From Actinomycetes bacterium (GTDB taxonomy: Bacteria; Actinomycetota; CALGFH01): a DNA stretch of 64,000 bases. Below the pieces are notes generated by a model. That model was not told the DNA's origin and made no database searches. It saw only the letters and a list, made by a program, of their open reading frames with translations. Where the stretch lies: positions 1,193-65,192 of the forward strand of contig DASYUT010000206.1 in NCBI GenBank assembly GCA_036000965.1, in the 5' to 3' direction. Positions 5,563 to 61,005 of this stretch are shown here, one piece after another; positions within the stretch are counted from its first letter, which is position 1; every line of letters starts with the position of its first letter. Made by a program: the position numbers and the translations under genes.

Positions 5563-5742
5563 ATGCCTGGCACGGTCGCGAAGCCGGCGCGCCTGAAGCT
5601 GCTCAATGGCTGCGGGCCGGGCAAGGACTCGGCCGGGCGGCCGGTCAACGAAGGCCCGAAGTTCGTCCGCGACGCCCCGGAGCCGCCGACCTGGCTGGAC
5701 CGTGAGGCCAAGGCCGAGTGGCGCCGGGTCGTGCCCGAGCTG
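5563..5742 (+). pseudogene. phage terminase small subunit (P27 family), N-terminal fragment truncated by IS insertion
   Basis: 'MPGTVAKPARLKLLNGCGPGK…EPPTWLDREAKAEWRRVVPELE' matches the P27-family N-terminal consensus (KP..LKLL.GNPGKRP…EP..P.WL…AK.EW.RL.PEL); the match stops exactly where the IS inverted repeat starts. Confidence 0.55.
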
Positions 5743-7144
5743 GAGGATGTCCCGCTCGCCGTTGGATTTCGGTGGGGCCTCCATGATGGATCCTACGGTC
5801 AGGCACCGACAGCCAGGTCGAGCGGCCGGGCTCGTCGGCGGTGGCCCGCTCCAGTGCCAGGGCGAGCTGGGGCAGCTCCTGGAAGCCCTTGACGCGGCGG
5901 AACTGCGCTTCGGCGGCGAGCATGCCGGCGGCGGCCCAGCGCAGCGCCATCTCGCCTGAGCTCCAGCGCTTCACCCGGCCGGCGTGGTCGCGGATGATCT
6001 CGATCATCGACTCGAGCGGGTTGGTCGACTCCACGGTCTGCAGCAGCTTGCCGCCGACGCCCAGCCGGGTGACGGTCAGGGTCTCGGCCAGCCCCTCGCG
6101 CAGGGAGGCGGCAGCGCCGGGCCGCTGGCGGTCAAGGCTGCGGGCGAGCGCTTCCAGCTCGTGCTGGGCGTGGTCGGCGTCGGCCAGTGCCCAGGCGGCG
6201 CGCAGCCGCCGCTGGACCAGCGGCCGCTCGGCCTCGGGCAGGTGGTCAGTGACGTTTCGTTCCTTGTGCTGACGGCACCTTTGGATGAGCGCCTTGCGGC
6301 CGAACACGGCTCGGATCGCCCGCTCCAAGGCCTTGCCGCCGTCGATGACGAACAGCACACCCCGGGAGGCGTCCAGGCCACGCTCGGCCAGGTCAGCCAC
6401 CAGGCGGGTGCAGACTGCCTTGTTCTCGGTGGTGCCCTCCACCACCCCGGGGGGGACCTTGGTGCCGTCGTCGGTCACGCCCAGCGCGCCGACCAGCAGG
6501 TGCTCACCCATCCCGAAGCCGTCCAGGAACACCACCAGCCAGCGCTCCTCGTCCAGCCGCCGTGCCAGCAGCTCACTCAGCCGCTCGGCGGTCGCCGTCA
6601 CAAACCGGCGCGAGACCGCCGACTTGCTGGTCCCGCTGGCCTGGGCGTCGACCTGCTGGCCGACCGGCTCCAACCCGGCCGGGTAGCGGCGGGTGGACAG
6701 CCCCGCCAGCATCCTGGCCACGATCCCCTCAGCGAGCAGGTCGGTCGAGGTGAACGCGGTGTAGGACTCGAGCTGGACCTCGTGGGCGCCGGCGCCGGTG
6801 GTGCGGACCCGCGGTCGGCGGACGGCAAGGCGCCGCCCGCCGAGGGTGACCGTGCCAGGCTGGGTGCCGTGCCGCATCGCCACCCGCTGCGGGTCGTGCT
6901 TGCCCCTCGGCCCGGCCACCTCGGTCACCTCCGCGGCCATCAGCTCATCCATGACCTCAAGGCCGACCGCGGTCGAGGCGGCCAGCAGCCCCTGGCGCAT
7001 GTGTGCCACGAAGGCGGCCAGGTGCTCATCCAGGCGGCCGGCCAGCCGCTCCGGCAGCCCAAGCGCCCCGGCACCGGCCAGCCGCAGCGGGCTGGGGTCG
7101 CCAGCGGTGTCGTCGGCCGACACGTGGGTGTGGGAGTCTTGCAT
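5645..7144 (-). CDS. IS256-family transposase (start MQDSHTHV…); the ORF runs through the left inverted repeat into flanking DNA (stop at 5645), so the true C-terminus is probably near ~5850
   Basis: Mutator/IS256 transposase conserved C-terminal region '…SGEMALRWAAAGMLAAEAQFRRVKGFQELPQL'; overall length and order of conserved blocks. Confidence 0.8.
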   Translation of the reverse strand: MQDSHTHVSADDTAGDPSPLRLAGAGALGLPERLAGRLDEHLAAFVAHMRQGLLAASTAVGLEVMDELMAAEVTEVAGPRGKHDPQRVAMRHGTQPGTVTLGGRRLAVRRPRVRTTGAGAHEVQLESYTAFTSTDLLAEGIVARMLAGLSTRRYPAGLEPVGQQVDAQASGTSKSAVSRRFVTATAERLSELLARRLDEERWLVVFLDGFGMGEHLLVGALGVTDDGTKVPPGVVEGTTENKAVCTRLVADLAERGLDASRGVLFVIDGGKALERAIRAVFGRKALIQRCRQHKERNVTDHLPEAERPLVQRRLRAAWALADADHAQHELEALARSLDRQRPGAAASLREGLAETLTVTRLGVGGKLLQTVESTNPLESMIEIIRDHAGRVKRWSSGEMALRWAAAGMLAAEAQFRRVKGFQELPQLALALERATADEPGRSTWLSVPDRRIHHGGPTEIQRRAGHPPARARPGATRPWPHGPARSAAPGRRGRTSGLR

Positions 7145-7245
7145 GCGGGGTCCTCCTCCTTGGACTTGGCGGTCCTCGGAGCGTGGCATGTCAGGCGCTC
7201 CGGGGAGGACCCCACCGCAAATCCCACGGACCTCGGGACAACCTC
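5743..7245 (-). mobile_element. IS256-family (Mutator-type) insertion sequence, ~1.5 kb, with imperfect ~40-bp terminal inverted repeats
   Basis: Left end 'GAGGATGTCCCGCTCGCCGTTGGATTTCGGTGGGGCCTCC' pairs with the reverse complement of the right end '…GAGGTTGTCCCGAGGTCCGTGGGATTTGCGGTGGGGTCCTCC'; a single transposase ORF lies between them. Confidence 0.8.
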
Positions 7246-7503
7246 GCAACCCGGTGATGCGGTGGATGGCTGACAACCTCGTGGTCCGCACCGACCCCGC
7301 CGGCAACATCAAGCTCGACCGCCAGCGCTCCACCGAAAGATCGACCTGGTAGACGTCCGCCAGTCGGTACAGTGCCCGGCCCCGATGGTCGCGCCCCTGA
7401 CAGGCGAGCAGCCCGCGGTGTGCCCACTGGCGGATGCGAGCTGGCTGGCTCCCGACCGCGACCCCCGCCGCGAGCGTGTCGACGAGCGCGGTGTCGCGCA
7501 CGA

Positions 7504-8112
7504 TCATGCCGGGCTTACCGCGTATGGCGACCAGTCGTCCACCGACCAGCGGTGCTGGCGACCCTCGGCGTCGCGGCAGGGGGGGTTCACGCACACCACC
7601 ACGCCCTGGCTCGGCCGCGGGGCGAGCAGCGACCGGCAGCCACACATGGGGCAGTCACGCTGGAAGCGCACCGGCCGCTCCGACAGGCCGAGCAGGCTGC
7701 GCGCCTGCGGGATGGCGCCGCGGGTGTCGGCGTTGCCGTACAGCAGCCCGACGCAGTGCTCGCCGTAGCCAGCCGCCACCACGGTCGTGGCGGCGTCGGC
7801 CAGCCAGCCCAGCGCCGCCCCCACGCGCGGGTCCAGCGCCCAGCCGCCGTGCTCCCGGTCGCCGCGGGCGACGTACTGAGCCTGGGCGAAGCCGAGCGCG
7901 TCACGCAGCCCGGCTTCCAGGTCGAGCACGAGCTGCTCGAGCGCGGTGATGGCGTCGATGATGAGCACGTTGGTCGGCGCGGTCTCCGGCTCACCGCCGC
8001 GGACCCGGCCGGTGAAGGCGACCGCCTGACCGCGTGCAGTCACCCGGAAGAGGCGCTGGTACAGGTCGGCCAGCTCGGCGTAGCCGTGGGCGAGGCGCTC
8101 CTCGATCATCAT
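7504..8112 (-). CDS. hypothetical protein with a C-terminal CxxC…CxxC zinc-ribbon (202 aa)
   Basis: Coding-like codon bias; 'DCPMCGC…CVNPPC' cysteine pairs; sits between the IS and comEA, probably part of the mobile remnant. Confidence 0.4.
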   Translation of the reverse strand: MMIEERLAHGYAELADLYQRLFRVTARGQAVAFTGRVRGGEPETAPTNVLIIDAITALEQLVLDLEAGLRDALGFAQAQYVARGDREHGGWALDPRVGAALGWLADAATTVVAAGYGEHCVGLLYGNADTRGAIPQARSLLGLSERPVRFQRDCPMCGCRSLLAPRPSQGVVVCVNPPCRDAEGRQHRWSVDDWSPYAVSPA

Positions 8113-26258: not shown

Positions 26259-28342
26259 GCCGGCACGGCTCCCCGGGCCCGCACGGCTCCCCCGGCCCGC
26301 ACGGCTCGTGGAAGTCCCCGATCTCGGGCGACCTGCTCGCCGGGGGCGGCATCTCCCTCGACGCGCTGCAGCCGGACGGGGAGGCGCTGTTGTGGATCGA
26401 GGGCCGGCCGCTGGAAGGCGGCCGGAACGTGGTCTGCCGGGCCGAGCCCGGCGCCGACCCGGTCGACCTCACCCCGCCCGGGGACGAGTTCGACGTGCGC
26501 ACCCGGGTCAACGAGTACGGCGGCGGCGCCTACGCCGTCCACGCCGGCACCCTGTTCTTCTCCAACTACGCCGACCAGCGGCTGTGGCGCCAGGACCCGG
26601 GCGAGCCGCCCCAGCCGATCACGCCGGAGCCCGACCGGCCGGCCGCGCTGCGCTACGCCGACGCCCGGGTCACCCCCGACGGCGCGCTGCTGGTCTGTGT
26701 CCGGGAGTCCCACCACGAGGCCGGGCGGGTCGTCAACGAGCTGGTCGCCGTGCCTGCCGACGGGTCCGGGGCGCCCTGGGTGCTGGCCGGCGGGCGTGAC
26801 TTCTACGCGTCCCCGCGCCTCTCCCCGGACGCGAGCCGGCTCGCCTGGCTCGAATGGGACCACCCGCGCATGCCCTGGGACGGGACCGAGCTGAAGGTGG
26901 CGGACTTCTCGGGCGGCGTGGTGGTCGGCGAGCCGAGGCTCGTCGCCGGCGGCCCTTCCGAGTCGATCTTCCAGCCCGAGTGGAGCCCGGGCGGCGCCCT
27001 GCACTTCGTGAGCGACCGCACCGGCTGGTGGAACCTGTACCGGGAGCGGGACCCCTCGCGCTCCTCAGGCGATGAGGCCGCCGGCGGCGAGCACGGGCCC
27101 TCGCGCGCCTCAGGCGAGCACGGGGCCTCGCGCGCCTCAGGCGATCTGGCCTCGCGCGCCTCGGGCGAGTCTGTCGAGGCCCTGGCCCCGATGGAGGCGG
27201 AGTTCGGGGCGCCCCAGTGGGTGTTCGGCCTGGCCACCTACGCGTTCCTGCCCGGCGGCCGGATCGCCTGCCTGTACGGGCGCGGCCCGGTCCAGCACCT
27301 CGGTCTGCTCGAGCCCGGGTCGGACCGCCCCACCCCGGTCGACCTCCCCTTCACCTGCTTCTACCCGCCGCAGCTGCTGGCACTCGGCGACCGCGTGGCC
27401 TGCATCGCGGGCAGCTCGACGCTGTCCCCCGCGGTGGTGGTGGTCGACCCTGCGACCGGGGAGGTCGAGACCCTGCGCCGGGCCCGCGACCTCGACCTGG
27501 ACCCCGGCTACCTGTCGGTCGCGCGCCTGGTCGAGTTCCCGACCGAGGGCGGTCGCACCGCCCACGCCCTGTACTACCCGCCCGCCAACCCCGACGCCCG
27601 GGGTCCCGACGGCGAGCGGCCGCCGCTGGTGGTAATGAGCCACGGCGGCCCCACCGCGGGCGTGGTCGGCCTGCTCAAGCTCGGCGTCCAGTTCTTCACC
27701 AGCCGCGGCGTCGCCGTGGTCGACGTCGACTACGGCGGCAGCAGCGGGTACGGCCGGGCCTACCGGGAGCGCCTGAAGGGCCGGTGGGGCGTGGTCGACG
27801 TCGACGACTGCGTCAACGCCGCCCGCCACCTGGTCGAGGCCGGCGAGGTCGACGGCGCGCGGCTGGCGATCACCGGGGGGAGCGCCGGCGGCTACACCGC
27901 CCTCTGCGCGCTCGCCTTCCGCGACGCGTTCGCCGCCGGCTCGAGCTGGTTCGGCGTCGCCGACCTGGAGACGTTCGCCAGCGACACCCACAACTTCGAG
28001 TCGCGCTACCTCGACCAGCTCGTGGGCCCGTGGCCCGAGTGGGCCGACCTCTACCACGAGCGCTCCCCGGCCCACTTCGCCGGCCGGATCGACTGCCCGG
28101 TCCTGCTCATCCAGGGTCTCGAGGACGAGGTCGTGCCGCCCTCCCAGGCCGAGGCGATGGTCCGGGCGCTGGCCGCGCGCGGCATCCCCCACGCCTACCT
28201 GACCTTCGAGGGCGAGCAGCACGGTTTCCGCAAGGCCGAGAACATCAAGCGCGCGTTCGAGGCGGAACTGTGGTTCTACGGCCGCGTCTTCGGGTTCGAG
28301 CCGGCCGACCCGATCGAGCCGGTGCCGATCCAGCACCTGTGA
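26255..28342 (+). CDS. S9 family peptidase (prolyl oligopeptidase / acylaminoacyl-peptidase type: beta-propeller + alpha/beta-hydrolase)
   Basis: Nucleophile elbow 'GGSAGGYTA', C-terminal 'GLEDEVVPPSQAE…EGEQHGF' catalytic Asp/His region; ATGA start/stop overlap with the HIT gene. Confidence 0.85.
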   Translation: MSRHGSPGPHGSPGPHGSWKSPISGDLLAGGGISLDALQPDGEALLWIEGRPLEGGRNVVCRAEPGADPVDLTPPGDEFDVRTRVNEYGGGAYAVHAGTLFFSNYADQRLWRQDPGEPPQPITPEPDRPAALRYADARVTPDGALLVCVRESHHEAGRVVNELVAVPADGSGAPWVLAGGRDFYASPRLSPDASRLAWLEWDHPRMPWDGTELKVADFSGGVVVGEPRLVAGGPSESIFQPEWSPGGALHFVSDRTGWWNLYRERDPSRSSGDEAAGGEHGPSRASGEHGASRASGDLASRASGESVEALAPMEAEFGAPQWVFGLATYAFLPGGRIACLYGRGPVQHLGLLEPGSDRPTPVDLPFTCFYPPQLLALGDRVACIAGSSTLSPAVVVVDPATGEVETLRRARDLDLDPGYLSVARLVEFPTEGGRTAHALYYPPANPDARGPDGERPPLVVMSHGGPTAGVVGLLKLGVQFFTSRGVAVVDVDYGGSSGYGRAYRERLKGRWGVVDVDDCVNAARHLVEAGEVDGARLAITGGSAGGYTALCALAFRDAFAAGSSWFGVADLETFASDTHNFESRYLDQLVGPWPEWADLYHERSPAHFAGRIDCPVLLIQGLEDEVVPPSQAEAMVRALAARGIPHAYLTFEGEQHGFRKAENIKRAFEAELWFYGRVFGFEPADPIEPVPIQHL

Positions 28343-28485
28343 CCCCCGGCGCCCGGCACCTGTGACCCCGCCCAGCACCCGTCACCCCCGCCCAGCACCT
28401 GCGACCCCGCCCAGCACCTGCGACCCCGCCCGGCACCTGCGACCCCGCCCAGCACCTGCGACCCCACCCAGCACCTGCGACCCCG
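28331..28485. repeat. ~19-bp tandem repeat ×8 (CAGCACCTGYGACCCCGCC) that begins with, and reiterates, the last codons plus stop of the S9 peptidase gene
   Basis: Eight consecutive near-identical units beginning at the CAGCACCTGTGA stop region. Confidence 0.9.
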
Positions 28486-28580
28486 GCGCCGCCGCCCGGT
28501 GAACTACAGATATACTCGCAAAACGTCGATCGAAGGACCGGCGCCATTCGCGTCCCCTACAGGAGGGGCTACCAGCAAGC

Positions 28581-30623
28581 GTGCAGCAACAGACGCAGGT
28601 CAAGGTACTGGTCCCAGGCAACCATCCCATGGTCAGCCTCCTCGGCACCCGGGACGAGCTGCTCAAGCTGATCGAGGCGGGGTTCGAGAGCACGGTGTTC
28701 GTCCGCGGCAACGAGATCACGATCACCGGGGAGCAGGCCGACGCCGAGCGGGTCGCCCGCCTGTTCGAGGAGATGATCAACCTCCTCGAACAAGGCAACG
28801 CCCTCACCGCCGAGACCGTCGGCCGGTCCATCGACATGCTCCGGGGCGACGAGGCGGTGCGGCCCTCGGACGTGTTCGGCGACGCCGTGCTCACCGTGCG
28901 GGGCCGCTCGATCAAGCCCAAGACGGTCGGGCAGAAGAAGTACGTCGACGCCATCCGCCGCAACACGGTCGTGTTCGGCATCGGCCCGGCCGGCACCGGC
29001 AAGACCTACCTGGCCATGGCCGTGGCCGTCCAGGCCCTGCTCACCAAGCAGGTCAACCGCCTGATCCTGACCCGGCCGGCGGTCGAGGCGGGCGAGAAGC
29101 TGGGCTTTCTGCCCGGGACCCTGTCGGAGAAGATCGACCCGTACCTGCGGCCCCTCTACGATGCCCTGTACGAGATGGTCGACGCCGAGCAGATCGGACG
29201 GCTGATGGAGCGGGGCACCATCGAGGTCGCCCCCCTCGGCTACATGCGGGGCCGCGCGCAGCCGTACGACAGCCAGGTCCTGACACCGTGGGGATTCCGT
29301 CCCATCGGAAGTCTCGAGGTCGGGGACCTCGTGATCGGATCGAACGGCCTCCCCACGCCGGTGCTCGGCGTGTACCCGCAGGGCCGCAAGGAGGTCTTCC
29401 GCATCCAGACGCAGGACGGTGCGTCGACGCTCTGCTGCGGCGAGCACCTCTGGTCGGTCACGACGCCCGAAGATCGGAGACGCGGGCGGCCCCATCGGGT
29501 CATCGAAACGCGGGAGATGATCGGCCGCCTCAGGAGGGCGCACGCTCACCGATTCGAGCTGCCGCGGGTCTCGCACGCAGTCGAGTTCGAGTCCCGGAAC
29601 GTCCCGATGGACCCCTACGCGCTCGGGCTCCTCCTAGGCGACGGATGCCTGACGACGTCGACGACGCCTTCGTTCGCGACCATCGATTCGGAGCTGGCCC
29701 TCGCCCTGGAGCTGGCCCTCGACGGCATCGAGCTGCGCCGGAAGGGGGAGGTCGACTACGTGCTCCGCCACACGGCCGGACACCGCGGGGGAGTGATCGT
29801 CTCGAATCCCGTGACGGTCGTGCTTCGGGGCCTCGGCCCTGCCGGCACGCGTTCGAACACGAAGTTCGTCCCGGAGCTCTACCTGTACAACTCCTCCGAG
29901 GTTCGCCTGGCCGTGCTCCAGGGCCTGCTGGACACCGACGGAGGACCCGTGACCCAGCGCGGACGAACCTGCCGCATCCAGTACGGGACGTCCTCGGAGC
30001 GATTGCGGGACGATGTCGTGTTCCTCGTGCGGTCCCTGGGAGGCGTCGCGTACCGGAGGACCCGCGACGCCGCCGGGCGTCCTCCCGGACGCGCCCGGGG
30101 GCGGGACGTTCACCACCGCTCGGATGTGTTCGTCCTCGATATCCGTCTGCCCGAGGGCATCGAGCCCTTCCGGCTGACTCGGAAGCGGGAGGTCTACCGG
30201 GTGTCCGGAGGCGGCCGTCCAATGCGCTTCATCCACAGCATCGAGCCCGCAGGCGAGGAGGAGACGCTCTGCATCCGGGTCGCGGCGGCCGATTCGCTGT
30301 ACGTGACGGACGACTTCCTGGTCACCCACAACACCCTCAACGACTCCTTCATCGTCCTCGACGAGGCCCAGAACACCACCCCGGAGCAGATGAAGATGTT
30401 CCTGACCCGGCTCGGGTTCAACTCCAAGGCCGTCGTCACCGGCGACATCACCCAGATCGACCTGCCGTCCGGCCAGCACTCGGGCCTGAACGTGGTACGC
30501 GAGATCCTCACCGGGATCGACGGCCTCGCCTTCATGTACCTGTCGAGCCGGGACGTGGTCCGCCACCGGATCGTGCAGGACATCGTGGAGGCCTACCGCC
30601 GCTCTGACGAGGCGAGGGCGTAG
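28581..30623 (+). CDS. phoH: PhoH-family ATPase interrupted in-frame by a 359-aa intein (precursor 680 aa; spliced product 321 aa)
   Basis: Walker A '[13 protein letters not shown]'; conserved '[10 protein letters not shown]' is separated from the Walker-B continuation '[16 protein letters not shown]' by a 359-aa insertion; the rest of PhoH is collinear; conserved phoH-ybeY-corC operon. Confidence 0.9.
29256..30332 (+). mobile_element. intein (Hint domain + LAGLIDADG homing endonuclease) with class-3 WCT-type features, inserted between R225 and T of PhoH
   Basis: Block A '[26 protein letters not shown]' (Ala1); block B 'TLCCGEHLW' (His B10, Trp B12); LAGLIDADG blocks '[12 protein letters not shown]' and '[13 protein letters not shown]'; block F '[17 protein letters not shown]' (Cys at F4); block G 'FLVTHN' followed by +1 Thr. 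Confidence 0.8.
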
Positions 30624-44846: not shown

Positions 44847-46733
44847 TTATGGCTTGATCAGGCTGATGCGGGTGTACCAGTTGGCGAGCGCGGTGCGGGT
44901 CGCGCCGCAGCTCCCGATCGGCGCCGCCAGCCACTGCGCGAGCGTGCAGGTCTGCCCGATGTACTCGGAGCCGATCCAGATGGAGCTGCCGTCCACGGCG
45001 GCCGCGCCGTAGTCGCCCCAGCGGGTCCGCGGCGGAGCGCCGACGAACGACTTGTAGCTGGTGAAGCCGTCCGACGGCCCGAGGCCCTCCCTGGCGACCT
45101 GGACGGGACCAGTACCCGCGGTGCTGTCGAGGCTCGCGTAGGCCGCGCTCGGGTAGTGGTCCGCGCCGACCAGCGTGAAGGCGATCACGCCGCGGCCGCT
45201 CGCGGTGACCCCGACCGCCGGGTAGGTCAGGTGGTTGTCGGCCACCCCGAACTGGCCCTGCTTGATGATGCGGCCCGACAGGTGCGAGGCGTCGATCTGC
45301 GGCCGGACCACGTAGAAGGCGACCCCGGCCTTGTCCGCGCCGCCGACGTTGACGGCCGTGCCGAGCGCTCCCCAGACCTTGCCGTTGGCGAACATCACCT
45401 GCTGCATGCGGCTGTCGCTGGCGTCCAGGCGCGACTCGACCTCGTCGTGCGCGGGCTCGTTGGCGAACAGCAGCCGCCAGCAGCCCGGCCCGGCCGGGGT
45501 CGGCGTGGTGCTGTCGTTGATGCACTCGCCCAGCGGGATGTTGCCGGGCTTCTGGTCGGCCTTTGGCGGGACCCCGTAGGTGCCGACCGGGGTGATCGCG
45601 TTCCGCAGCGTGACCGCAGGGGTGGCGGTGTTCAGTGACGACGTGTTGGACAGCGCCCAGAGCGCGATTCGGTTGTCGGTGCCGGTGCCGTTGGCCTCCT
45701 CCGCCGCCATCGAGCTGAGGAAGTACTCGGTGCCGCCGAGGTCGTCGGCGTAGGCGCCGGCCGGTGTGATCGCCGGCCACACCGTGAAGCCCGGGTTGCC
45801 GGCGACCGCCCCGACCGTGTCGAACTGGGTCACGGTGACGGTCGGCGCGCCCGCCGCCAGCGCGGCCTTGGAGAACGCGTAGACCTGGGCGGCGTGGAAT
45901 CCGTCCGCGAAGAACGGGTACTCGTTGGTGGTGACGAAGAAGCCGTGGCGGTCGGCGCCGATGTGCGGGAAGTCGCCGATGCAGGGGCCGCCCGCGCAGT
46001 GGTGGTTGGGCGTGCCCTGCGTGCCGTCGTTCTGGACGGGGAGGCGGTAGATCGTCCAGGCGCCGGTCGGGTCGGCGGTCTTGGACACGGCGATGTCGAT
46101 GTGGTTCGGGCCCGTGAACGCCCCGTTGGCGGGGACGACCTCGAGGGTCAGCACGACGTTGAACCAGCGCTGCGTGTCAGGGTCGAAGTGGCAGCTCGGG
46201 TCGGTGACGAAGGGGCCGAAGGTCCCGGTGGTGCGGTTGATCGCGGGCGGGTAGCCGTAGAACGTGTTGAGGTCGACGACGCCGGTCCGCGCGTTCCCGG
46301 AGCGGTCGTAGACCCGCAGGACGTCGTTGACCGACTCCAGCACGAAGCCGTTGCCGGCGCAGAGCCCCTGGTCGGGCGGCTCGACCGAGAACTGGTTACC
46401 GTTGTTGGCCAGCCGCTGGTCACGGTGGATGAGCCCGTCGAAGCTCCTGACCAGCTGCGGGCTCGACTTGACCTTGGCGCTGGGCACCGCGCTGCCGCTG
46501 CCGCGGAGACCCTGCGACAGGCTGCGGTCGACGGCCGTCGCCTCCTCCTTACGCGGCTCGCCGACGAACTCGGGGAACTGGATCGCGTCGCTGCCGGTGG
46601 GAGTCTCCCGGAACGTGGTCGTCCCCCCGCTCGCGATCTGCCGCGTAACCCCATCCGCCTGTGCGGGGGCGACGTTCCCCCCGAGTGCCGTCACCACACC
46701 GAGCACGAGCACTGGTACCAGTGCCCAGCCCAC
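44847..46733 (-). CDS. secreted hypothetical protein, distant paralogue of the adjacent BNR/sialidase-like gene
   Basis: Signal peptide 'MGWALVPVLVLGVVTALGGNVAPAQA'; C-terminal 'RWGDYGAAAVDGSSIWIGSEY' region resembles 'FLGDYVYAAATRTYGAAVWND' of the neighbouring gene. Confidence 0.6.
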   Translation of the reverse strand: MGWALVPVLVLGVVTALGGNVAPAQADGVTRQIASGGTTTFRETPTGSDAIQFPEFVGEPRKEEATAVDRSLSQGLRGSGSAVPSAKVKSSPQLVRSFDGLIHRDQRLANNGNQFSVEPPDQGLCAGNGFVLESVNDVLRVYDRSGNARTGVVDLNTFYGYPPAINRTTGTFGPFVTDPSCHFDPDTQRWFNVVLTLEVVPANGAFTGPNHIDIAVSKTADPTGAWTIYRLPVQNDGTQGTPNHHCAGGPCIGDFPHIGADRHGFFVTTNEYPFFADGFHAAQVYAFSKAALAAGAPTVTVTQFDTVGAVAGNPGFTVWPAITPAGAYADDLGGTEYFLSSMAAEEANGTGTDNRIALWALSNTSSLNTATPAVTLRNAITPVGTYGVPPKADQKPGNIPLGECINDSTTPTPAGPGCWRLLFANEPAHDEVESRLDASDSRMQQVMFANGKVWGALGTAVNVGGADKAGVAFYVVRPQIDASHLSGRIIKQGQFGVADNHLTYPAVGVTASGRGVIAFTLVGADHYPSAAYASLDSTAGTGPVQVAREGLGPSDGFTSYKSFVGAPPRTRWGDYGAAAVDGSSIWIGSEYIGQTCTLAQWLAAPIGSCGATRTALANWYTRISLIKP

Positions 46734-47063
46734 AGCCTTGTGCGCTTCATCCCGGTGACCTCCCCGCAGCCTGCCTACCTGCCAAAGCGCAGGTCAGGTA
46801 TGGATAGCTCGCATACCGTGCCCAAGGGGAGAAGCAGTGTCAATACGCACGGCGTGACCTCGGTAGCGGCGACCGGGCGGCAGCCGCGGCGGGCGTTCAT
46901 CCTGTGACATCCTGTGACATCCTGTGACGCGGAAGCCCCTCCTGGACCACCTGTAACGCCGAAGCCCTGCTGAACGGCTCATGTAGAGGTAGAGAACGGG
47001 GGCGACGTGCTGACAGCCCGCACACCGGACCGGGTTGCTCGCCTCCGGACCGAAGGGAGAACG

Positions 47064-48918
47064 CATGCGGAAGCCGTTGCGGGTGTTGCTCATCGTCGCG
47101 GTGGTGTCCCTGGTCGCCGCGCCGGCGGGTAGCGCCGTCGCGTTCAACGCCGACACGCTGGTCACCGTGGGCAGTCCACCGTCGCCGTTCTCGCAGAACA
47201 AGCAGAACGAGCCGGCCGTGGCGATCGACGCCAACCACCCCACCGTCCTGGTGGCAGGCGCGAACGACAACATCGACATGGAGGCCTGCAACGCCGGTAC
47301 CGACAACACCTGTCCGTTCACCGACGGCGTCGGCGGGTCAGGCGTCTCCTTCTCGTTCAACAGCGGCGACTCGTGGTTCCAGCCCACCTACACCGGCTGG
47401 AGCGCCCGCAACTGCGTGGGCGCGCCGGGCGACAACGACCCGCCCTGCCAGCCCCAGGTCGGTCCGATCGGCACGCTGCCCGGCTACTTCGAGGCGGGCC
47501 TGGTCTCCGACGGCGACCCAGCGGTGGCGTTCGGTCCGGTGTACAGGAACGGCAGCTTCTCGTGGGCGAACGGGTCTCGCCTGTACTACGCGAACCTGAC
47601 GTCGAACTTCCCGGGCCGGCAGGGGGTCAGGGGGTTCGAGGCGATCGCGGTGTCGCGGATCGACGGGCCGGCCTCCACCGGGCTGACCCAGGCCATCGTG
47701 TCCAACCAGGCCAACTGGCAGGCGCCGGTCATCGTGAGCAAGCAGAACTCGGCGCTGTTCGCCGACAAGGAGCAGGTGTGGGCCGACAACGCCTCGTCGA
47801 GCCCGTTCTTCGGGCACGCCTATGCCTGCTACGGGGCCTTCCGGGGCGTGCCGGGCACGTCTCAGCCGCTGGTGGTGGCGACGTCGACCGACGGCGGTGA
47901 CAGCTGGACCAACCACCAGGTCACGCCGGCCACGAACAACCCTGTCACCCCGAGGGGCTTCGGTCGGTCGGGCTGCACGATCCGGACCGACAGCCACGGC
48001 GTGGCGTACGTGTTCGCCTACCAGTTCGGCTCCGGGCTCCCCGGCAGCGGCGTCCAGATCATGAGCAAGTCCTTCGACGGCGGTCGCCACTGGACCCAGG
48101 CGCGGCCGATCCTCCCGGCGACCGACCTCTGCAACGCGTTCGAGCCGTCGATCGGCCGGTGCGTCGAGGACGGGATCGGCGGTGCCCGCGACGACCTCGG
48201 GCCCTCTCCGAGCGTGGACATCGCCAACGGCGCCCCGACCGGCGCCGACGCCACCAACCAGATCGTCGACGCCTGGGCGGACGGCCGTGACGGCCTCAAC
48301 AACGAGCACGTGATGTTCGCCTCCTCCAGCAACGGGGGCGCCACGTGGACCGGCCCGACCAGGATCGAGACGGCCGGGGACCGCGGGTACTATGCCGCGC
48401 CGGCGATCTCGCCGAACGGAACCGACGCCTGGGTCGTGTACAACGCATTTACCACACCGTTCCGCAACGACACCACGTCGCCCCGGAACCTCGTCGGGGT
48501 GGTCAAGCATGCGGACGTCGCGGCCAACGGCACCGTGGGAGCCTTCACCCAGGTCCACCGGAGCCCCGGCGGCGATCCCAGGGGCAGCAGCCAGAACAAC
48601 CTGGCGGCGGAGTTCCTCGGCGACTATGTCTACGCCGCGGCCACCCGCACGTACGGGGCCGCCGTCTGGAACGACGCCCGGCGGGCCGCCGACTGCCCGG
48701 CCATCGACGCCTACCGCCTGGCGCTGCACAACGAGGCGCTGGTGGCCGGCGGACCAGTGGCTGAACCGGAGGAGCCGCGGGGCGAGGAGGAGGCCGTCCA
48801 CCACCTGCTGAAGACCCAGGAGCCGCATGCCGTCGCCCCACCCGTGCAGCAGGTGTGCGAAGGGACGTTCGGCAACTCCGACATCTTCGGCGGGACCTAC
48901 GCCGACCCGACTCCGTAG
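47064..48918 (+). CDS. secreted BNR/Asp-box repeat protein (sialidase-like beta-propeller)
   Basis: Signal peptide; Asp-box repeats 'STDGGDSW', 'SFDGGRHW', 'SSNGGATW'; RBS GAAGGGAG. Confidence 0.7.
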
Positions 48919-54176: not shown

Positions 54177-57100
54177 TCAGGCACCTGCCACTGACGGCGC
54201 GCCCGGGCCTCCGCCGGCGCTCTGGCGGGACCTCCTGGACTTGGCGAACCGCAGGTACAGGATCGGGACGATGAACAGGTTGAGCAGGGTCGAGGTGACC
54301 AGGCCACCGAGGATGACCACGGCCATCGGGTGCTCGACCTCGTGACCGGGGATGTCGCCCAGCACCACCAGGGGCACCAGGGCCAGCCCGGTCGCCAGCG
54401 CGGTCATCAGGATCGGCGCGAGCCGCTCGCGTGCCCCGCGCAGGACGAGCCCAGGCCCGAAGGTCTCGCCTTCCTCCCGTTCGAGATGCTGGCAGTGGTT
54501 GATCAGCATGATGCCGTTGCGCGCCGCGATCCCGAGCACCGTGAAGAACCCGATGAGCGAGCCGAGCGAGATGATGCCGCCAGCTGTGTACGCCGCCAGT
54601 ACCCCGCCCACCAGCGCCATCGGCAGGGTCAGGAAGAGGAGCGTGGCCAGGCGCCAGCTTCCCCCGAACGCCGCCTGCAACAGCAGGAAGATCCCGATCG
54701 CGGCGGCACCCCCGAAGGCGAAGATGCGCCGCTGGGCGGCCTGCCGCTCCGCGTACTCCCCGAGCAGCTCCGCGTGGAACTCGCGCGGGAACTGGATTCC
54801 GTCGATGGTGCGCTTGACGTCGGCCACCACGGAGCCGAGGTCCCGTCCCTGCACGTTGGCGTCGACGTCGATGCGGCGGGCGAGGTTCTCGCGTTCGATG
54901 AGGTTCGGGGTCGGCTTGATCTGCACCTGGGCCACGTCCCCGAGCCGCACGTGCCCGCCGCCTGGCGTGTCGATCAGCAGCGCGCGGATGTCGTTCAGGC
55001 TGTTGCGTGCGCTGGGCGTGCTCCACACGTGCACGTCGTAGGCCTTGCCGTCCCGGAAGATGTCACCGACCTCTTCGCTCGCCACCCAGGTGGCCGCCGC
55101 CCGGCGCACGTCGCCTGGCTTGAGCCCGTAGCGTTCGGCCTTGGCGAGGTCGACCTTGACGTCGACCTGTGGCACGTCGGCTTGGAGCGACACGTGCAGA
55201 TCGACGATGCCGCCGATCTTCGAGAGGGCTGCCTCCGCCTCCTTCGCCTTGCTGCGGAGGGTCGCCAGGTCCTGGCCGTAGATGCGCACGACGATGGCGT
55301 CGCTCGTTCCCGCCAGCACCTCCCTGATCCGCTCCTTCAAGTAGGTCTGCACGTCGCGCTGGAGCCCCGGGTAGCCGTCGACCACCTTCTGGATGGAGGC
55401 CACCGTCTGGTCGTAGTCGACCTTGGGATCGACGCTGATCCAGTTCTCGCCGAAGTTCACGCCGACCACTTCGTCGGCCAGCAGGGCCTGGCCGATGTGG
55501 GCGCCGAAGTTGCGCACCCCTGGGATGGACCGCAGCTCGCGACTGGCCGCCGTGGTGATCCGGGTCATCTCCGGATGGGAGGTGTCGGGCTTGGTCACCC
55601 AGTGCATCAGGAAGTCCCGCTCCTTGAACGAAGGAAGCAGCGACTGCCCGAGCATCGGGTAGACCATGAGGCCGAGCAACGCGATGACCGCGACGGTGGC
55701 GAACGCCGAGAGCGGCCGGTGGATGAGCCGCGCCAGGACCGCGTGATAGCCGCGCTGGAGCACGCGGTACAGCGGGGGGTCGCGGCGGTCGAGCGGCGCG
55801 CTCCGCAGCAGGATGAGGCTCATCGCCGGCGTCACGGTCAGCGCGATCACCAGCGAAGCCAGCACCGCCAGCCCGTACGAGAAGACGAGCGGCCGGAAGA
55901 ACGCGCCGGACAGGCCCTGCAGGAAGAAGATCGGCATGACCGCCACCACGGCGATCAGCGTCGCGTAGATGATGGGGCTGCGCACCTCGAGCGAGGCCTC
56001 GAGCACGACCGACGCGGTGGACCTGCCGGTCCCTTCCCGGCGATGCTGGCGCAGGCGCCGCAGGATGTTCTCGACGTCGATGATGGCGTCGTCGACCACG
56101 ACCCCGACGGCGATCACCAGCCCCGCCAGCACCATCGTGTTGATCGTGGTGCCGCGCAGGTAGAGCACGATCACCGCCGCCACCAGCGACAGCGGGATCG
56201 CCACCAGGCTGATCAGCGCGGTGCGCCACTCGAAGAGGAAGGCGCCGAGGACCAGCACCACCAGCAGGCAGCCGAGCAGCAGCGCCCTGGTGAGGTTGTG
56301 GATCGCCATGTCGATGAAGGTCGCCGGCCGGAAGATGGTGGTGTCGATCTCCATCCCGGAAAGGCCGGGCCGCAGCGCGTCGAGCGCCGCCTCCACGCCT
56401 TGCGTCACCTGCAGGGTGTTGGCGCCGGGGAACTTCTCGACGATGAGCATGAGCCCAGGGCCGTCGTTGATGACGGCGTCACCGGCCAACGGTTGGTGGC
56501 CTTCCACCACGTTGGCTACGTCGCCGATGCGCAGCGGCTTGCCGTTCTTTCGCTCGAGCGTCACCTTGGCCAGGTCGTCCGGGGTCACGATGGGCAGGAC
56601 GTGGCGGACCCCGAGCCGCTGGTTGGGGGTCTCGATGAACCCCCCGGTGCCGATCATCGCCCCGTCGGAGAACCGCAGGATCCCCGCGTCCAGGGCGTCC
56701 GCGGTGCCCTCCATGACCTGGTCGAGCGAAACGCCGCTGGCCTGCAACCGTTCCGGTTCAACCTGCACGTGCATCTGCTTGATCCGCTCGCCCCAGATCG
56801 CGATGTTCGCCACGCCTGGCACGCGCAGCAGGCGGTTCCTGATCGTCCAGTAGGAGATCGCCGACATGTCGATCAGCGACACGCTCTTGGAGGAGAGCCC
56901 GATCTTCATGACCCGGCTGGTCGCCGAGAGGGGTTGCATCATGAACGGCGGCGCCGCCCAGGTCGGCAAGGTCGGCGTCACCGTTGCGACGCGCTCCTGC
57001 ACCAACTGGCGCGCCCGCAGCAGGTCGGTCCCGGTCTCGAAGATGAGGACGATGGACGACAGCTGGGGGACCGACTTGGAGCGCATCACGTCAAGCCCCT

Positions 57101-57329
57101 CCACCCCGCTGAGCGCCTCCTCGAGCGGCACGGTGACCAGGGCCTCCACCTCGGACGAGGAGAGCCCGAGGCAGGGGGTCTGGATCTCCACCCGTGGCGG
57201 TGCGAACTCGGGGAAGACGTCCACCGGCATCTGTGCCAGTTGCCCGACGCCGAAGAACATCATCGCCGCGGCGACCGCGACCACGAGGAAGCGGAACTTC
57301 AGGCTCGACCCAACGATCCATCGCATCAT
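54177..57329 (-). CDS. CusA/CzcA-family heavy-metal efflux RND transporter (copy 1)
   Basis: 1050 aa, 12-TM RND architecture; N-terminus '[27 protein letters not shown]…' typical of the HME-RND family. Confidence 0.9.
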
Positions 57330-57816: not shown

Positions 57817-60800
57817 TTATGCGTTCACCTTGGCCATAACCAGGTCGACCTGGGGCCCGCTGACAGGTTCCGGTTCGGGGCGACGAGCCCCGAACCGCAG
57901 GTAGAGGGCGGGCACGATGAACAGGTTGAGCAGCGCCGAGGTGACCAGGCCACCCAGGACGACCACGGCCATCGGGTGCACGATCTCGTGACCGGGGTTG
58001 TCGAGCACCACCAGGGGCACCAGGGCCAGCCCGGTTGCGAACACGGTCGTCAGGACCGGCGCGAGCCGTTCCCGTGCCCCGCGCACGACGAGCTCGGGGC
58101 CGAAGGTCTCGCCTTCGTCACGCTCGAGACGGCGGTAGTGGCTGACCAGCAGGACGCCGTTGCGCACTGCGATCCCCAGGACCGTGAAGAACCCGGCGAG
58201 CGCACCGAGCGACATGATGCCGCCGCCCGCGAGTGCCGCCAGCACGCCGCCCACCAGCGCCACGGGCAGGGTCAAGAAGACCACCGCCGCCAGGCGCCAG
58301 CTGCCGAAGGCCGCCTGCAGGAGGAGGAAGATCCCGATGGCGGCGGCTGCCGTGTAGTTGACGACGCGCCGCTGGGCGGCCTGCCGGTCCGCGTAGTCGC
58401 CGAGCAGCTCCGCGTGGTACTCGAGCGGGAAGCTGAGCTGCTTGATGCGACGGTCCACGTCGCCAGCGACCGCGCCGCGGTCACGGCCCCGCACGTTGGC
58501 GCTGACGTCGACGAGACGCGAGACCGCTTCACGCCGGATGACGTTGGGAGCCGCCGCGACGCGCACCTCGGCAACGTCCCCCAGCCGCACGTGCCCGCCG
58601 CCGGGCGTGTCGATCAGGAGCTCGCGAACACTGGTCAGGCTGGTGCGCGTCGCGGGCGTGCTCCACACCTGCACGTCGAACACCTTCTGCTCCTCGAACA
58701 AGCTGCCGACCGCGATCCCTGACAGCAACGTGGTCGCCGCCCGGCGCACGTCGCCTGGCTTGATCCCATAGCGCTCGGCCGCGGCGAGGTCGACCTCGAC
58801 CTCCAACGTCGGCTCCTCGACCGGCTGCTCCACCTTCGGGTCGACGACACCGTCGATCCCCGAGATGGCCTGCCGCACCTCCTCGGCCTTGCTGCGGAGG
58901 ACCTCCAGCTCCTGGCCGTAGACGCGCACGACGATGGCGTCGTCGCCTGCCCCCGCCGGTGCCTCGCCCGCCACCGGCAGTACCCCGCTGGTCCTGTCCT
59001 TCAGATAGGTCAGCACCTCGTGCTGGAGCCCTGGGTAGCCGTCGACCACCTGCTGGATGGAGGCCACCGTCTTGTCGTAGTTGGCCTCGGGGTCGATGCT
59101 GACCCACAGCTCGCTTGAGTTGATCCCGACCACCTGGTCCGACATCACCGCACGCCCCACATGGGCGCCGACGTTGCGGACCCCCGGAGTGGACCGGAGC
59201 TCGTTGCTGACCTGGGCCACGATCCGGGTCATCTCCGGACCGGAGGTGCCGGGCGCGCCGTCCCAGCGGATCAGCAGGTTGCGCTCCTTGAACGGGGGAA
59301 GCAGCGACTGCGACCGCCCGGCCCATGGCAGCACCGCCAGGCCGAGCAGGACGATGACGCCGGCGGTCGCGACCACCGCGCGCGGCCGGTTGACGGTGCG
59401 CGCGAGGACCCCGTCGTAGCGACCCTGGAGCCGGCCCACGAGCGGGGACTCGCGGCGCCCGGCCGGCGGCCTGGACAGGAGCAGGACGCTGAGCGCTGGC
59501 GTGACGGTCAGCGCGACCACCATGGAGGCGAGCACCGCCAGCCCGTAGGAGAGGGCGAGCGGCCGGAAGAACGCGCCGGACAGGCCGCCCAAGAGGAGGA
59601 CCGGCACGAGGGCGAGAAGGATGATCAGCGTCGCGTAGAGGAGCGCGCCGCGCACCTCGAGCGAGGCCTCGAGGATGACCGCTGCGGTCGACTTGTCGCT
59701 GTCCTCCTGGCGATGCTGGCGGAGGCGCCGCGCGACGTGCTCGACACCGACGATGGCGTCGTCGACGACGATGGCGACGGCGAGCACCAGTCCCGCCAGG
59801 ACCATCGCATTGAGTGCCGCCCCACGCAGGTAGAGCACCAGCACTGCCGCAGCCAGCGACACCAGGATCGCCACGAGGCTGATCAGCGCGGTCCGCCAGT
59901 TGAACAGGAAGACGACGAGGACCAGGAGCAGGAGCGCGCAACCCAGGAGCAGCGGCAGGGCGAGGTTGCCCATGGCCGTCTCGATGAAGGACGCCGGGCG
60001 GTAGACGGAGGAGTCGATCTCCATGCCAGCCAGACCGGGCCGGAGCGCCTCGAGCGCCGCGTCCACCCCTCGGGTGACTTCGAGCGTGTTGGCCTCCGGG
60101 AACTTCTCGACGACGAGCATGAGGCCGGCACCGTTGTTGACGCTGGCGTCACCGATGAGCGGCTGGTGGTCCTCCACCACGCTGGCCACGTCACCCAGAC
60201 GCAGCCCCCGGCCGCCCGCCCGCCCCTTCTCGATGGTGACCTTGGCCAGGTCGGCGGGGGTCGTGATGGGCAGGACGTGGCGCACGCCGAGCCGCTGGTT
60301 GGGGGTGTCGATGAACCCTCCGGTGCCGGGCGTCGATGCGTCCAGGAAGGTCAGTGGCGACACCCACAGGGCGTTCCCGGTGGTCTTGATGACCTCGAGC
60401 AGCGACACCTTGTGGGCTCGCAGCTTGTCCGGGTCGACCTGCACCTGGAGCTGGCGCTCCCGCTGGCCCCAGATGGCGACGTTCGCCACGCCGGGCACGC
60501 CCATCAGGCGTGGCCTGATCGTCCAGCGGGTGAGCACCGACTGCTCGATCGCGCTCAGGTTCTTGGAGGAGAGCCCGATCATCATGACCCGGCTCGACGA
60601 CGACAGGGGCTGGAGCATCGTGGGCGGCTTCGACACCTGCGGCAACGCATGCGCCTGGGTGAGGCGCTCCGCCACCAACTGCCGTGCACGGAACAGGTCG
60701 GTCCCCGGCTCGAAGACGAGCACGATCGACGACAGTCCGGGAACCGACTCCGAGCGAATTGTCTCAAGCCACGCCACGCCGTTGAGCAGGTCGGCCTCCA

Positions 60801-61005
60801 GCGGGACGGTGATCAATTGCTCCACCTCGTCCGCGGAGAGACCGAGGGCCTCGGTCTGGATCTCCACGTACGGCTGGGTGAACTCGGGCAGGGTGTCCAC
60901 CGGCATGTTGCGAAGCTGGGTGACACCGAGGAACAGCGTCGCCGCAGCGACCGCCACCACCAGGAGCCGAAACTTCAGGCTCGACCCGACGATCGAACGC
61001 ATCAC
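57817..61005 (-). CDS. CusA/CzcA-family heavy-metal efflux RND transporter (copy 2)
   Basis: 1062 aa paralogue of copy 1 with the same architecture. Confidence 0.9.

Follow-up and report, generated by a model that had tools for sequence, protein, structure and literature searches.

Class 3 inteins can be recognized by their sequences: they lack Cys, Ser, or Thr at position 1, they contain the WCT triplet (Trp at B:12, Cys at F:4, and Thr at G:5), and they are followed by Thr at position +1 (Tori et al., 2010; PMC2807308). The prototype, the full-length, 341-aa MP-Be DnaB intein of mycobacteriophage Bethlehem, has a non-nucleophilic residue 1, Trp at B:12, Cys320 at F:4, a C-terminal Thr-His-Asn (residues 339–341), and Thr+1, and its mechanism has been shown biochemically (PMC2807308). 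When the WCT triplet was grafted onto the class 1 gp41-1 intein, splicing did not result from the triplet alone (Beyer et al., 2020; PMC7664689), so the triplet is diagnostic but not sufficient. PhoH is among the bacterial proteins that host inteins; 21 such cases have been listed from Actinobacteria and Deinococcus-Thermus (Novikova et al., 2016; PMC4760082). Class 3 PhoH inteins from Mycobacterium fortuitum and M. xenopi have been aligned (Kelley et al., 2018, Nat Commun; PMC6195587, Fig. 6a), and a PhoH intein is also stated to be present in M. smegmatis (Woods et al., 2020; PMC7360933).

We compare these systems with a phoH gene found in the DNA of an Actinomycetes bacterium (contig DASYUT010000206.1); the entire 64,000-nucleotide stretch that was analyzed is referred to as the window. 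This chromosomal phoH very probably carries an orthologous copy of the described class 3 PhoH intein, with a nested, double-motif LAGLIDADG endonuclease. A previous sequence-only reading of the window had proposed that the allele or site might be new; that proposal must be abandoned, given that PhoH is a published host (PMC4760082, PMC6195587, PMC7360933) and that the same site is used in 120 of 120 mycobacterium-centered homologues. The PhoH intein, its class 3 status, and its site are already published for mycobacteria; because the same intein at the same site in phoH has been published and is common in databases, the present copy is an ordinary example.

The phoH gene and its insert

The features of the gene are collected in Table 1. 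The GTG start is backed by N-terminal homology with other PhoH proteins, and a GGAGGGG motif is located ∼12 nt upstream. The gene is adjoined by ybeY, a CNNM/CorC-type gene, and era; phoH-ybeY-era is a conserved arrangement. The products of ybeY and era are both tied to ribosome maturation, and PhoH is an ATPase. In a genome scan of species representatives the best match to phoH was no more than 68% identical, and looking up the exact precursor sequence yielded no matching record. Neither Rfam nor tRNA scanning gave a match anywhere in the window, and a scan for promoters and terminators around phoH found none.

Table 1. Features of the intein-containing phoH gene (positions in the window).
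Feature	Position	Strand	Details
phoH precursor ORF	28581..30623	+	680 aa plus stop; GTG start
N-extein	28581..29255	+	PhoH residues 1-225; final residues YMRGR
Walker A	28983-29006	+	GPAGTGKT; in N-extein
Intein	29256..30332	+	359 aa, A1 ... T357-H358-N359; codons 226-584 of phoH
Splicing block A	29256..29294	+	Residue 1 = Ala (GCG, 29256-29258), non-nucleophile
Splicing block B	29418..29459	+	Cys60 = B:6; Cys61 = B:7; His64 = B:10 (29445-29447); Trp66 = B:12 (29451-29453)
LAGLIDADG endonuclease domain	29568..30215	+	Intein residues ∼105-320, between Hint halves; Pfam LAGLIDADG_3, PI-SceI sequence match, model
LAGLIDADG motif 1	29610..29648	+	LGLLLGDGC; putative catalytic Asp129
LAGLIDADG motif 2	29904..29945	+	Putative catalytic Asp228
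Splicing block F	30261..30308	+	Cys339 = F:4 (TGC, 30270-30272), predicted initiating nucleophile
Splicing block G	30309..30335	+	DDFLVTHN plus T at +1; Thr357 = G:5; His358 = G:6; Asn359 = G:7; Thr+1 = G:8 (ACC, 30333-30335)
C-extein	30333..30620	+	Residues 226-321 of mature PhoH
Walker B	30351-30374	+	IVLDEAQN; in C-extein

The sequence-only reading had described 359 extra residues between YMRGR and the Walker B segment in a 680-aa ORF; both the coordinates and the translation agree with this description. The Pfam PhoH domain is strongly matched in the precursor (E = 9e-91) but is broken into two stretches. The insert follows ...APLGYMRGR and precedes Walker B, that is, it is located inside the ATPase core; its first codon is GCG (Ala), its last two codons are CAC AAC (His-Asn), and the next codon is ACC (Thr). 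The insert is in frame and its removal restores a colinear PhoH, as is characteristic of an intein: the spliced 321-aa protein aligns with PhoH from Corynebacterium glutamicum (PDB 3B85; E = 5e-97), and the alignment is ungapped at the junction ('...yMRGRTLNDsF...' vs '...YMRGRTLNDAF...'), so that the exteins are continuous over YMRGR/TLND (here and below a slash marks the junction). A chance fusion of ORFs or a frameshift artefact was discarded on the basis of the single continuous frame and the seamless junction.

An empty site in relatives, suggested for checking in the sequence-only reading, is common: the insert is present in 9 of the best 80 genomic phoH loci and precisely absent from the other 71, and the flanks are contiguous in the 63 empty loci that were parsed. 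Because 71 of the 80 nearest loci are empty, the insert is not a PhoH-family-specific domain. The same count makes it extremely unlikely that the insert is a permanently retained domain or a dead intein, that is, that the gene encodes a non-spliced 680-aa PhoH variant or is a pseudogene. Such a protein would have Walker A parted from Walker B within a conserved core motif of PhoH; moreover, the ORF is intact, more than 100 homologues show no variation in the catalytic splice residues, and the gene sits in the conserved phoH-ybeY-era neighborhood.

Splicing motifs and class assignment

Splicing blocks A, B, F, and G are all found in the insert, together with the block B His, the C-terminal His-Asn, and Thr+1 (block B positions were counted from its His, His64 = B:10). 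Residues 226–584 of the precursor match intein profiles: only the intein parts of the NCBIfam models for intein-containing DnaB, GyrA, Tes, and RecA are matched, as is Pfam LAGLIDADG_3. With sequence E-values down to 4e-13 and a fold-match E-value of 4e-18, these similarities are far beyond chance.

The PhoH insert has Ala1, WCT, and Thr+1, that is, every sequence feature by which Tori et al. (2010) define class 3. His64, Trp66, and Cys61 are invariant (121/121 sequences), position F:4 is Cys in 120 of 120 sequences, and the C-terminal Thr, His, and Asn are each present in 120 of 120, followed at +1 by Thr in 116 and by Ser in 4. Trp66, Cys339, Thr357, His358, and Asn359 are conserved without exception in the 120 closest homologues. 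HMMER aligns Trp66, Cys339, and Thr357 with W65, C107, and T123 of the engineered gp41-1_WCT (6RIZ), and Trp66 with Trp67 of the class 3 MchDnaB1 intein. Every residue that the sequence-only reading had predicted for the class 3 signature (Ala1, Trp at B:12, Cys at F:4, THN, and Thr+1) is thus present, and its classification of the insert, class 3 (WCT) and full length with a LAGLIDADG homing endonuclease, holds in silico.

Class 1 splicing was rejected because residue 1 is Ala. In 108 close homologues this residue is Ala in 88 and Ser in 20, so a nucleophile at position 1 is tolerated in the PhoH-intein lineage. Ala1 is also common to class 2 inteins; in a class 2 (KlbA-like) reaction, the +1 residue would attack the N-terminal junction directly and Cys339 would be only a structural residue. 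This alternative is highly improbable: class 2 inteins are without WCT and have Asp at F:4 (PMC2807308), whereas here Trp, Cys, and Thr are invariant; Thr, the +1 residue, is ill suited as a nucleophile to attack an amide directly; and the PhoH intein shows homology with members of the class 3 subfamily.

The class 3 assignment is consistent with comparisons with individual inteins. The PhoH intein shares all of the above-mentioned sequence features of MP-Be DnaB and, like it, is full length; the two differ in host protein (a DnaB helicase for MP-Be) and at B:7 (Ser62 in MP-Be, Cys here) (PMC2807308). The mycobacterial PhoH inteins (M. fortuitum, M. xenopi, and M. smegmatis) are found in the same host protein and are alike in Ala1 and WCT class. 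In further mycobacteria, which include M. sherrisii, M. intracellulare, M. chimaera, M. malmoense, M. lacus, and M. celatum, inteins with a modal length of 359 aa and a LAGLIDADG-type endonuclease occupy the same site as here (YMRGR/AQP...THN/TLN); from these species we infer the identity of the site in M. fortuitum, M. xenopi, and M. smegmatis. Block B is LCCGEHLW here vs LASGDHLW in mycobacteria, and the M. sherrisii precursor is only ∼56% identical over its whole length to the present PhoH. The structurally characterized class 3 mini-inteins Msm DnaBi1 (6BS8) and MchDnaB1 (6RIX, 6RIY) have the Hint fold and WCT in common with the PhoH intein; however, their sequence similarity is weak (E ∼0.002–0.015), they lack an endonuclease, their block B contains DxxH, and they occupy the P-loop of DnaB.

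The best sequence match of solved structure is gp41-1 (6QAZ), an intein of cyanophage-like origin, which aligns with the N-terminal Hint half (E = 1.9e-10 over ∼70 residues) and shares THN; it differs in belonging to class 1 (with Cys1 and with Phe and Asp at B:12 and F:4, respectively) and in being naturally split and without an endonuclease. The N-terminal Hint half of the PhoH intein is much closer to this class 1 intein than to class 3 DnaB inteins of known structure, an observation with a small bearing on the debate about whether class 3 diverged from class 1 or had an independent origin (Beyer et al., 2020).

Homing endonuclease domain and predicted fold

The endonuclease domain scores 38 bits against Pfam LAGLIDADG_3 (cut-off 22.5 bits; E = 2e-9), and the two motifs described in the sequence-only reading are both intact, each with a conserved acidic residue, as in double-motif LAGLIDADG endonucleases. 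In a 45-sequence alignment, Gly128, Asp129, and Gly130 of motif 1, which is shared by phage relatives, and Asp226, Asp228, and Gly229 of motif 2, which aligns with LAGLIDSDG of PI-SceI, are invariant.

The AlphaFold (AF2) model of the intein has a pLDDT of 90.6 and a pTM of 0.91. When the whole model was used as the query, the best Foldseek match was PI-SceI (E = 4e-18, TMq 0.73), followed by matches that include TliVMA, PhoVMA, and PI-PfuI; the endonuclease is inserted between the Hint halves. PI-SceI (the Sce VMA1 intein) has the same two-domain architecture of Hint and LAGLIDADG, but it is a eukaryotic class 1 intein (Cys1, Cys+1) that is only 16–17% identical. The endonuclease domain matches I-DmoI and I-Tsp061I; matches to the Hint part are gp41-1 as well as 6RIY and 6BS8, two class 3 DnaB inteins, and other matches to the Hint fold include Prp8, NpuDnaE, and the hedgehog autoprocessing domain.

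Distribution and inheritance

The family contains at least 1,477 sequences. The best 120 of the at least 1,477 matches to the intein alone are all PhoH proteins (69–87% identity, mostly with 100% coverage), and the intein is present in all 240 homologues among the matches listed. In the mycobacterium-centered set of PhoH proteins, the intein is found in 120 of 120 at the identical position (YMRGR/A...THN/TLN) with a modal length of 359 aa. The nine occupied genomic loci span Actinomycetota, Deinococcota, and Myxococcota and have the same junction (9/9). The sequence-only reading had stated that class 3 inteins are largely confined to actinobacteria and their phages; for the present subfamily this is too narrow, because the PhoH intein is also found in one Meiothermus MAG and one Polyangiales MAG and full-length class 3 relatives are found in Clostridium, Xanthomonas, Salmonella, and Vibrio phages.

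These phage relatives, which include inteins in Phrappuccino gp2, Alice gp175, Clostridium phage phi8074-B1, Xanthomonas phage LucasX DnaB, Salmonella phage SA002, and Vibrio phage 1.161.O, and which also occur in Mycobacterium phages, are 33–41% identical over all 359 residues of the PhoH intein. Like it, they begin with AQP and have CCxEHLW as part of block B, CIxV as part of block F, VTHN followed by T, S, or C, and both LAGLIDADG motifs; however, their insertion point is just behind the Walker A lysine (GK/) of helicases and terminases, whereas the PhoH intein precedes Walker B. Derivation of the PhoH intein from this large class 3 family in the P-loops of phage helicases and terminases is the most likely origin.

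There is some evidence in the sequences for horizontal spread of the intein, that is, higher identity for the intein (74–78%) than for the exteins (55–66%) between distant hosts and a GC3 of 0.87 for the intein vs 0.97 for the exteins (p = 6e-6). No compositional island is visible in whole GC (0.69 for the intein and 0.68 for the exteins). In its own clade the intein is more diverged (83–87% identity) than the exteins (93–95%), so inheritance there appears to be vertical instead of the result of a very recent invasion. The 'recent mobility' suggested in the sequence-only reading is plausible: the intact motifs, the lower GC3, and the patchy distribution favor it, but the divergence within the clade does not.

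The same identities within the clade fit co-inheritance of intein and host gene, and they raise the possibility that the Hint domain splices but the endonuclease is inactive, so that the intein would be a vertically inherited resident that has not recently been mobile. The endonuclease region is shortened in three of the nine occupied loci, one of which, the M. sherrisii copy, has a mutated first LAGLIDADG motif; such decay, seen in Saccharothrix, M. sherrisii, and Polyangiales, also favors a resident intein. We regard this as a serious but distinctly less probable alternative. The present copy has two intact LAGLIDADG motifs, which, like their Asp residues, are invariant in the clade, and the endonuclease domain is as well conserved (∼75%) as the Hint domain; in addition, when distant hosts are compared the intein is more strongly conserved than the exteins, its GC3 is below that of the host gene, and only 9 of the 80 best loci are occupied.

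Proposed splicing and homing pathway

For a class 3 intein with an active endonuclease, the splicing steps can be modeled on the pathway established for the MP-Be DnaB intein. The 680-aa precursor would first fold; Cys339 (F:4) would then attack the peptide bond between Arg225 and Ala1 to give a thioester-linked block F branched intermediate, from which the N-extein would be transferred to the hydroxyl group of Thr+1 to give the block G branched ester. Cyclization of Asn359, assisted by His358, would release the free 359-aa intein, and an O-to-N acyl shift would join ...YMRGR-TLND... to produce the functional 321-aa PhoH. The released intein would probably act as a site-specific endonuclease on intein-less alleles of phoH, for which the predicted target is ...TAC ATG CGC GGC CGC/ACC CTC AAC GAC... 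(empty site CTGGCCTACATGCGCGGCCGC/ACGCTCAACGACGCCTTCATC); homing on empty phoH genes would explain the patchy, cross-phylum distribution.

The Cys60-Cys61 pair (B:6 and B:7) is invariant in this clade of PhoH inteins. A disulfide or a Zn site could form between Cys61 and Cys339, and such a switch could keep PhoH in an inactive state during oxidative stress; the Cys118-Cys48 trap in the class 3 intein Msm DnaBi1 offers an analogy. A role for the PhoH intein as a redox- or metal-gated switch is, in our estimation, unlikely. In a related and similarly unlikely scenario, the intein would have arrived by ectopic homing from the P-loop site of a phage helicase, where G-K/T resembles the G-R/T of PhoH.

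Implications

Since mature PhoH is 321 aa long, the 680-aa 'PhoH' requires annotation as intein-containing. The present copy, a clean example of full length (359 aa) that retains its LAGLIDADG motifs intact and is followed by Thr+1, comes from a very high-GC actinobacterium that is absent from the species representatives scanned. The mini class 3 DnaB inteins have received more study than class 3 inteins with an intact endonuclease, and the PhoH-intein family may be of use in mechanistic or protein-engineering work.

A class 3 intein in PhoH

The phoH ORF encodes a 680-aa precursor in which the PhoH domain (Pfam, E = 9e-91) is broken into two stretches. The extra segment starts with GCG (Ala1) directly after ...APLGYMRGR and ends with ...LVTHN, followed by the ACC codon (Thr+1) that opens the C-extein; re-derived from the ORF, the coordinates, lengths, and residues assigned in a sequence-only reading are all correct, and the reading of the insert as an intein is confirmed. 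Without the insert, the 321-aa PhoH matches C. glutamicum PhoH (3B85; E = 5e-97) with no gap over the junction, that is, the junction is seamless. The ORF also contains a LAGLIDADG_3 domain (Pfam; 38 bits vs a 22.5-bit cut-off), and the NCBIfam models for intein-containing DnaB, GyrA, Tes, and RecA match it via their intein portions only.

Features of the phoH region, the intein, and other parts of the window
Feature	Position	Strand	Remarks
Transposase ORF	5648-7645	-	Mutator-family (IS256-like) domain, E = 2e-28; 666 aa, longer than the 379-position Pfam profile
18-bp repeat x2.7	26259-26307		in frame (GSPGPH), N-terminus of S9 (prolyl oligopeptidase family) gene
27-bp repeat x3.2	27086-27169		in frame (GEHGPSRAS-like), middle of S9 peptidase gene
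19-bp tandem repeat	28328-28487		consensus CGCCCAGCACCTGCGACCC; about 7-8 copies, 88% matches
phoH precursor ORF	28581-30623	+	680 aa
Exteins	28581-29255, 30333-30620	+	flanking PhoH parts
Walker A	28983-29006	+	N-extein
Intein	29256-30332	+	359 aa; exact bounds of extra segment
Block A	intein N-terminus	+	starts at Ala1 (29256-29258)
gp41-1-like segment	29268-29477	+	intein residues 5-74
Cys60, Cys61	29433-29438	+	B:6, B:7, within CCxEHLW
Block B		+	His64 (B:10), Trp66 (B:12)
LAGLIDADG motifs (two)		+	between blocks B and F
Block F		+	Cys339 (F:4)
Block G		+	DDFLVTHN/T: Thr357 (G:5), His358 (G:6), Asn359 (G:7), Thr+1 (G:8)
Walker B	30351-30374	+	C-extein
Divergent ORF pair	44850-46733, 47035-48915	-, +	about 627 aa each, coding-like GC3 0.94-0.96; no Pfam match at E <= 1e-5
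AcrB/AcrD/AcrF-type RND transporter genes	54180-57329, 57820-61005	-, -	adjacent, full length (E = 1e-220, 2e-197); short ORF between them

Tori et al. (2010; PMC2807308) define class 3 inteins by sequence (position 1 without Ser, Thr, or Cys; a WCT triplet; Thr or Ser at +1) and by biochemistry (an obligate block F Cys on which a second branched intermediate, labile to thiols, is formed). The PhoH intein has all three sequence features (Ala1, Trp66/Cys339/Thr357, and Thr+1), as first read, and they support a class 3 mechanism. In such a mechanism, Cys339 would attack the Arg225-Ala1 bond to give a block F thioester branch, the N-extein would be transferred to Thr+1 by transesterification, and cyclization of Asn359 followed by an O-to-N shift would produce a native peptide bond; the predicted products are mature 321-aa PhoH and a free 359-aa intein-endonuclease. 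Because the intein separates Walker A from Walker B, it is very probable that the precursor lacks activity before splicing.

Genomic context

phoH lies in a chromosomal setting of the kind usual in actinobacteria (window GC 72%). The gene order is leuS, an IS256/Mutator-family transposase, subtilase, lepA, radical-SAM (HemW-like), hrcA, dnaJ, rsmE, BldD-like regulator, PIG-L deacetylase, S9 peptidase, phoH, ybeY, CNNM/CorC-type gene, era, Eis-like GNAT, GH15, and two AcrB-type pumps. The 19-bp repeat overlaps the end of the S9 peptidase ORF, beginning within its final codons and stop codon, and occupies most of the intergenic region 5' of phoH; a scan of the repeat region found no promoter-like or terminator-like site.

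A widespread family at a known site

The suggestion that PhoH might be a new intein host or site is refuted both by published PhoH inteins and by their abundance in databases. In the literature, PhoH is a bacterial intein host with 21 cases in Actinobacteria and Deinococcus-Thermus (Novikova et al., 2016; PMC4760082), class 3 inteins in PhoH of M. fortuitum and M. xenopi have been aligned (Kelley et al., 2018; PMC6195587), and M. smegmatis PhoH houses an intein (Woods et al., 2020; PMC7360933). The window copy is a further orthologue of this known class 3 intein. With the intein alone as query and an E-value limit of 1e-5, a search matched at least 1,477 proteins. Its top 120 matches are exclusively PhoH proteins with this intein (69-87% identity), mostly from soil and sediment metagenomes and MAGs labeled Actinomycetota, Thermoleophilaceae, Gaiellaceae, Solirubrobacterales, and Kineosporiaceae. 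Among these proteins, His64 and Trp66 are present in 121/121 sequences, and Cys339, Thr357, His358, and Asn359 in 120/120 each; position +1 is occupied by Thr in 116 and by Ser in four. Of 108 close homologues, 88 have Ala1 and 20 have Ser1; because the latter retain the full WCT triplet, the position-1 nucleophile flips inside one orthologous class 3 family. All 120 matches listed in a second search, which started from the M. sherrisii precursor, read YMRGR or FMRGR, then AQP...THN, then TLN; these include RefSeq PhoH of M. intracellulare, M. chimaera, M. malmoense, M. lacus, M. asiaticum, M. celatum, and M. palustre, and the intein is most often 359 aa long (87/109 parsed sequences).

Occupancy and mobility

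We compared the best 80 phoH loci from GTDB species representatives. Nine contain the intein at exactly this site (Rugosimonospora, a Thermoleophilaceae MAG, Streptomyces sp. NPDC059166, an Actinomycetota MAG, an Acidimicrobiaceae MAG, Meiothermus sp., Saccharothrix xinjiangensis, Mycobacterium sherrisii, and a Polyangiales MAG); the other 71 lack it, among them the two top-ranked by extein similarity (68% identity). The occupied alleles contain inteins of 303-362 aa. In the three shortest (303-310 aa; Saccharothrix, M. sherrisii, and Polyangiales) the endonuclease region is shortened, and in M. sherrisii a mutation affects the first LAGLIDADG motif as well (LGLQLGAGC); these look like snapshots of endonuclease decay. 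Homing elements are classically proposed to cycle through invasion, endonuclease decay, and loss, and the pattern of occupancy and shortening fits this cycle.

Recent mobility, proposed from the retained endonuclease, is plausible. Between distant hosts, intein identity (74-78%) exceeds that of the very conserved exteins (55-66%), which argues for horizontal transfer; however, the closest relatives (exteins 93-95%, intein 83-87%) look as expected for vertical co-inheritance. The GC3 of the intein is 0.87 vs 0.97 for the exteins (Fisher p = 6e-6) and 0.95-0.99 for neighboring genes, pointing to incomplete amelioration or to relaxed codon selection. A similar deficit is present in the Streptomyces allele and in one Actinomycetota MAG allele; there is none in those of Rugosimonospora, Thermoleophilaceae, and Acidimicrobiaceae.

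Phage relatives and a possible switch

By tblastn, the intein matched 667 phage-genome records, 462 with a single match spanning at least 80% of its length; identity is 33-41% in the top 30 matches listed. We examined six copies, hosted by a terminase-like protein (gp2, Mycobacterium phage Phrappuccino), a helicase (gp175, Mycobacterium phage Alice), a hypothetical protein (Clostridium phage phi8074-B1), DnaB (Xanthomonas phage LucasX), an SF2 helicase (Salmonella phage SA002), and a hedgehog/Hint domain protein (Vibrio phage 1.161.O). All six start with AQP or AEP, have HxW in block B (most as CCxEHLW), C-I-x-V in block F, and both LAGLIDADG motifs, and end in THN before a T, S, or C; all are placed right after a G-K dipeptide, that is, the Walker A motif in the helicases and terminase-like protein. 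These matches identify a phage-rich class 3 subfamily that, contrary to the initial view, extends beyond actinobacteria and their phages. The PhoH allele probably derives from this subfamily, which fits a proposal, cited by Kelley et al. (2016), that class 3 inteins arose in phages.

In this PhoH-intein clade, Cys61 is present in 121/121 and Cys60 in 104/121 sequences, and the Cys-Cys pair is shared by four of the six phage relatives (Clostridium, Xanthomonas, Salmonella, and Vibrio); in contrast, mycobacterial PhoH inteins have ASGDHLW in block B. The residue at B:7 is Asp in Msm DnaBi1 and Ser in MP-Be DnaB, whereas it is Cys61 here. By analogy with Msm DnaBi1, the pair could work with the putative catalytic Cys339 as a switch that puts splicing under redox or metal control.

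Structural relatives

In a PDB sequence search, the N-terminal Hint half matches the gp41-1 intein (6QAZ; E = 1.9e-10) and the engineered gp41-1_WCT (6RIZ; E = 4e-13), the endonuclease part matches PI-SceI, and two class 3 DnaB inteins, MchDnaB1 and Msm DnaBi1, match weakly. Trp66, Cys339, and Thr357 align with the engineered W65, C107, and T123 of gp41-1_WCT, and Trp66 with Trp67 of MchDnaB1 (numbering after Beyer et al., 2020; PMC7664689). An AlphaFold2 model built from an alignment of 45 homologues (pLDDT 90.6, pTM 0.91) was compared using Foldseek: the whole intein matches PI-SceI (E = 4e-18, TMq 0.73) and groups also with TliVMA, PhoVMA, and PI-PfuI, and the Hint part groups with gp41-1, MchDnaB1, and Msm DnaBi1. 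Over residues 5-74, the class 1 split intein gp41-1 is far closer in sequence than the solved class 3 DnaB inteins (E about 0.002-0.015); this likeness of the Hint half to gp41-1 bears on the debate in PMC7664689 over divergent vs convergent origin.
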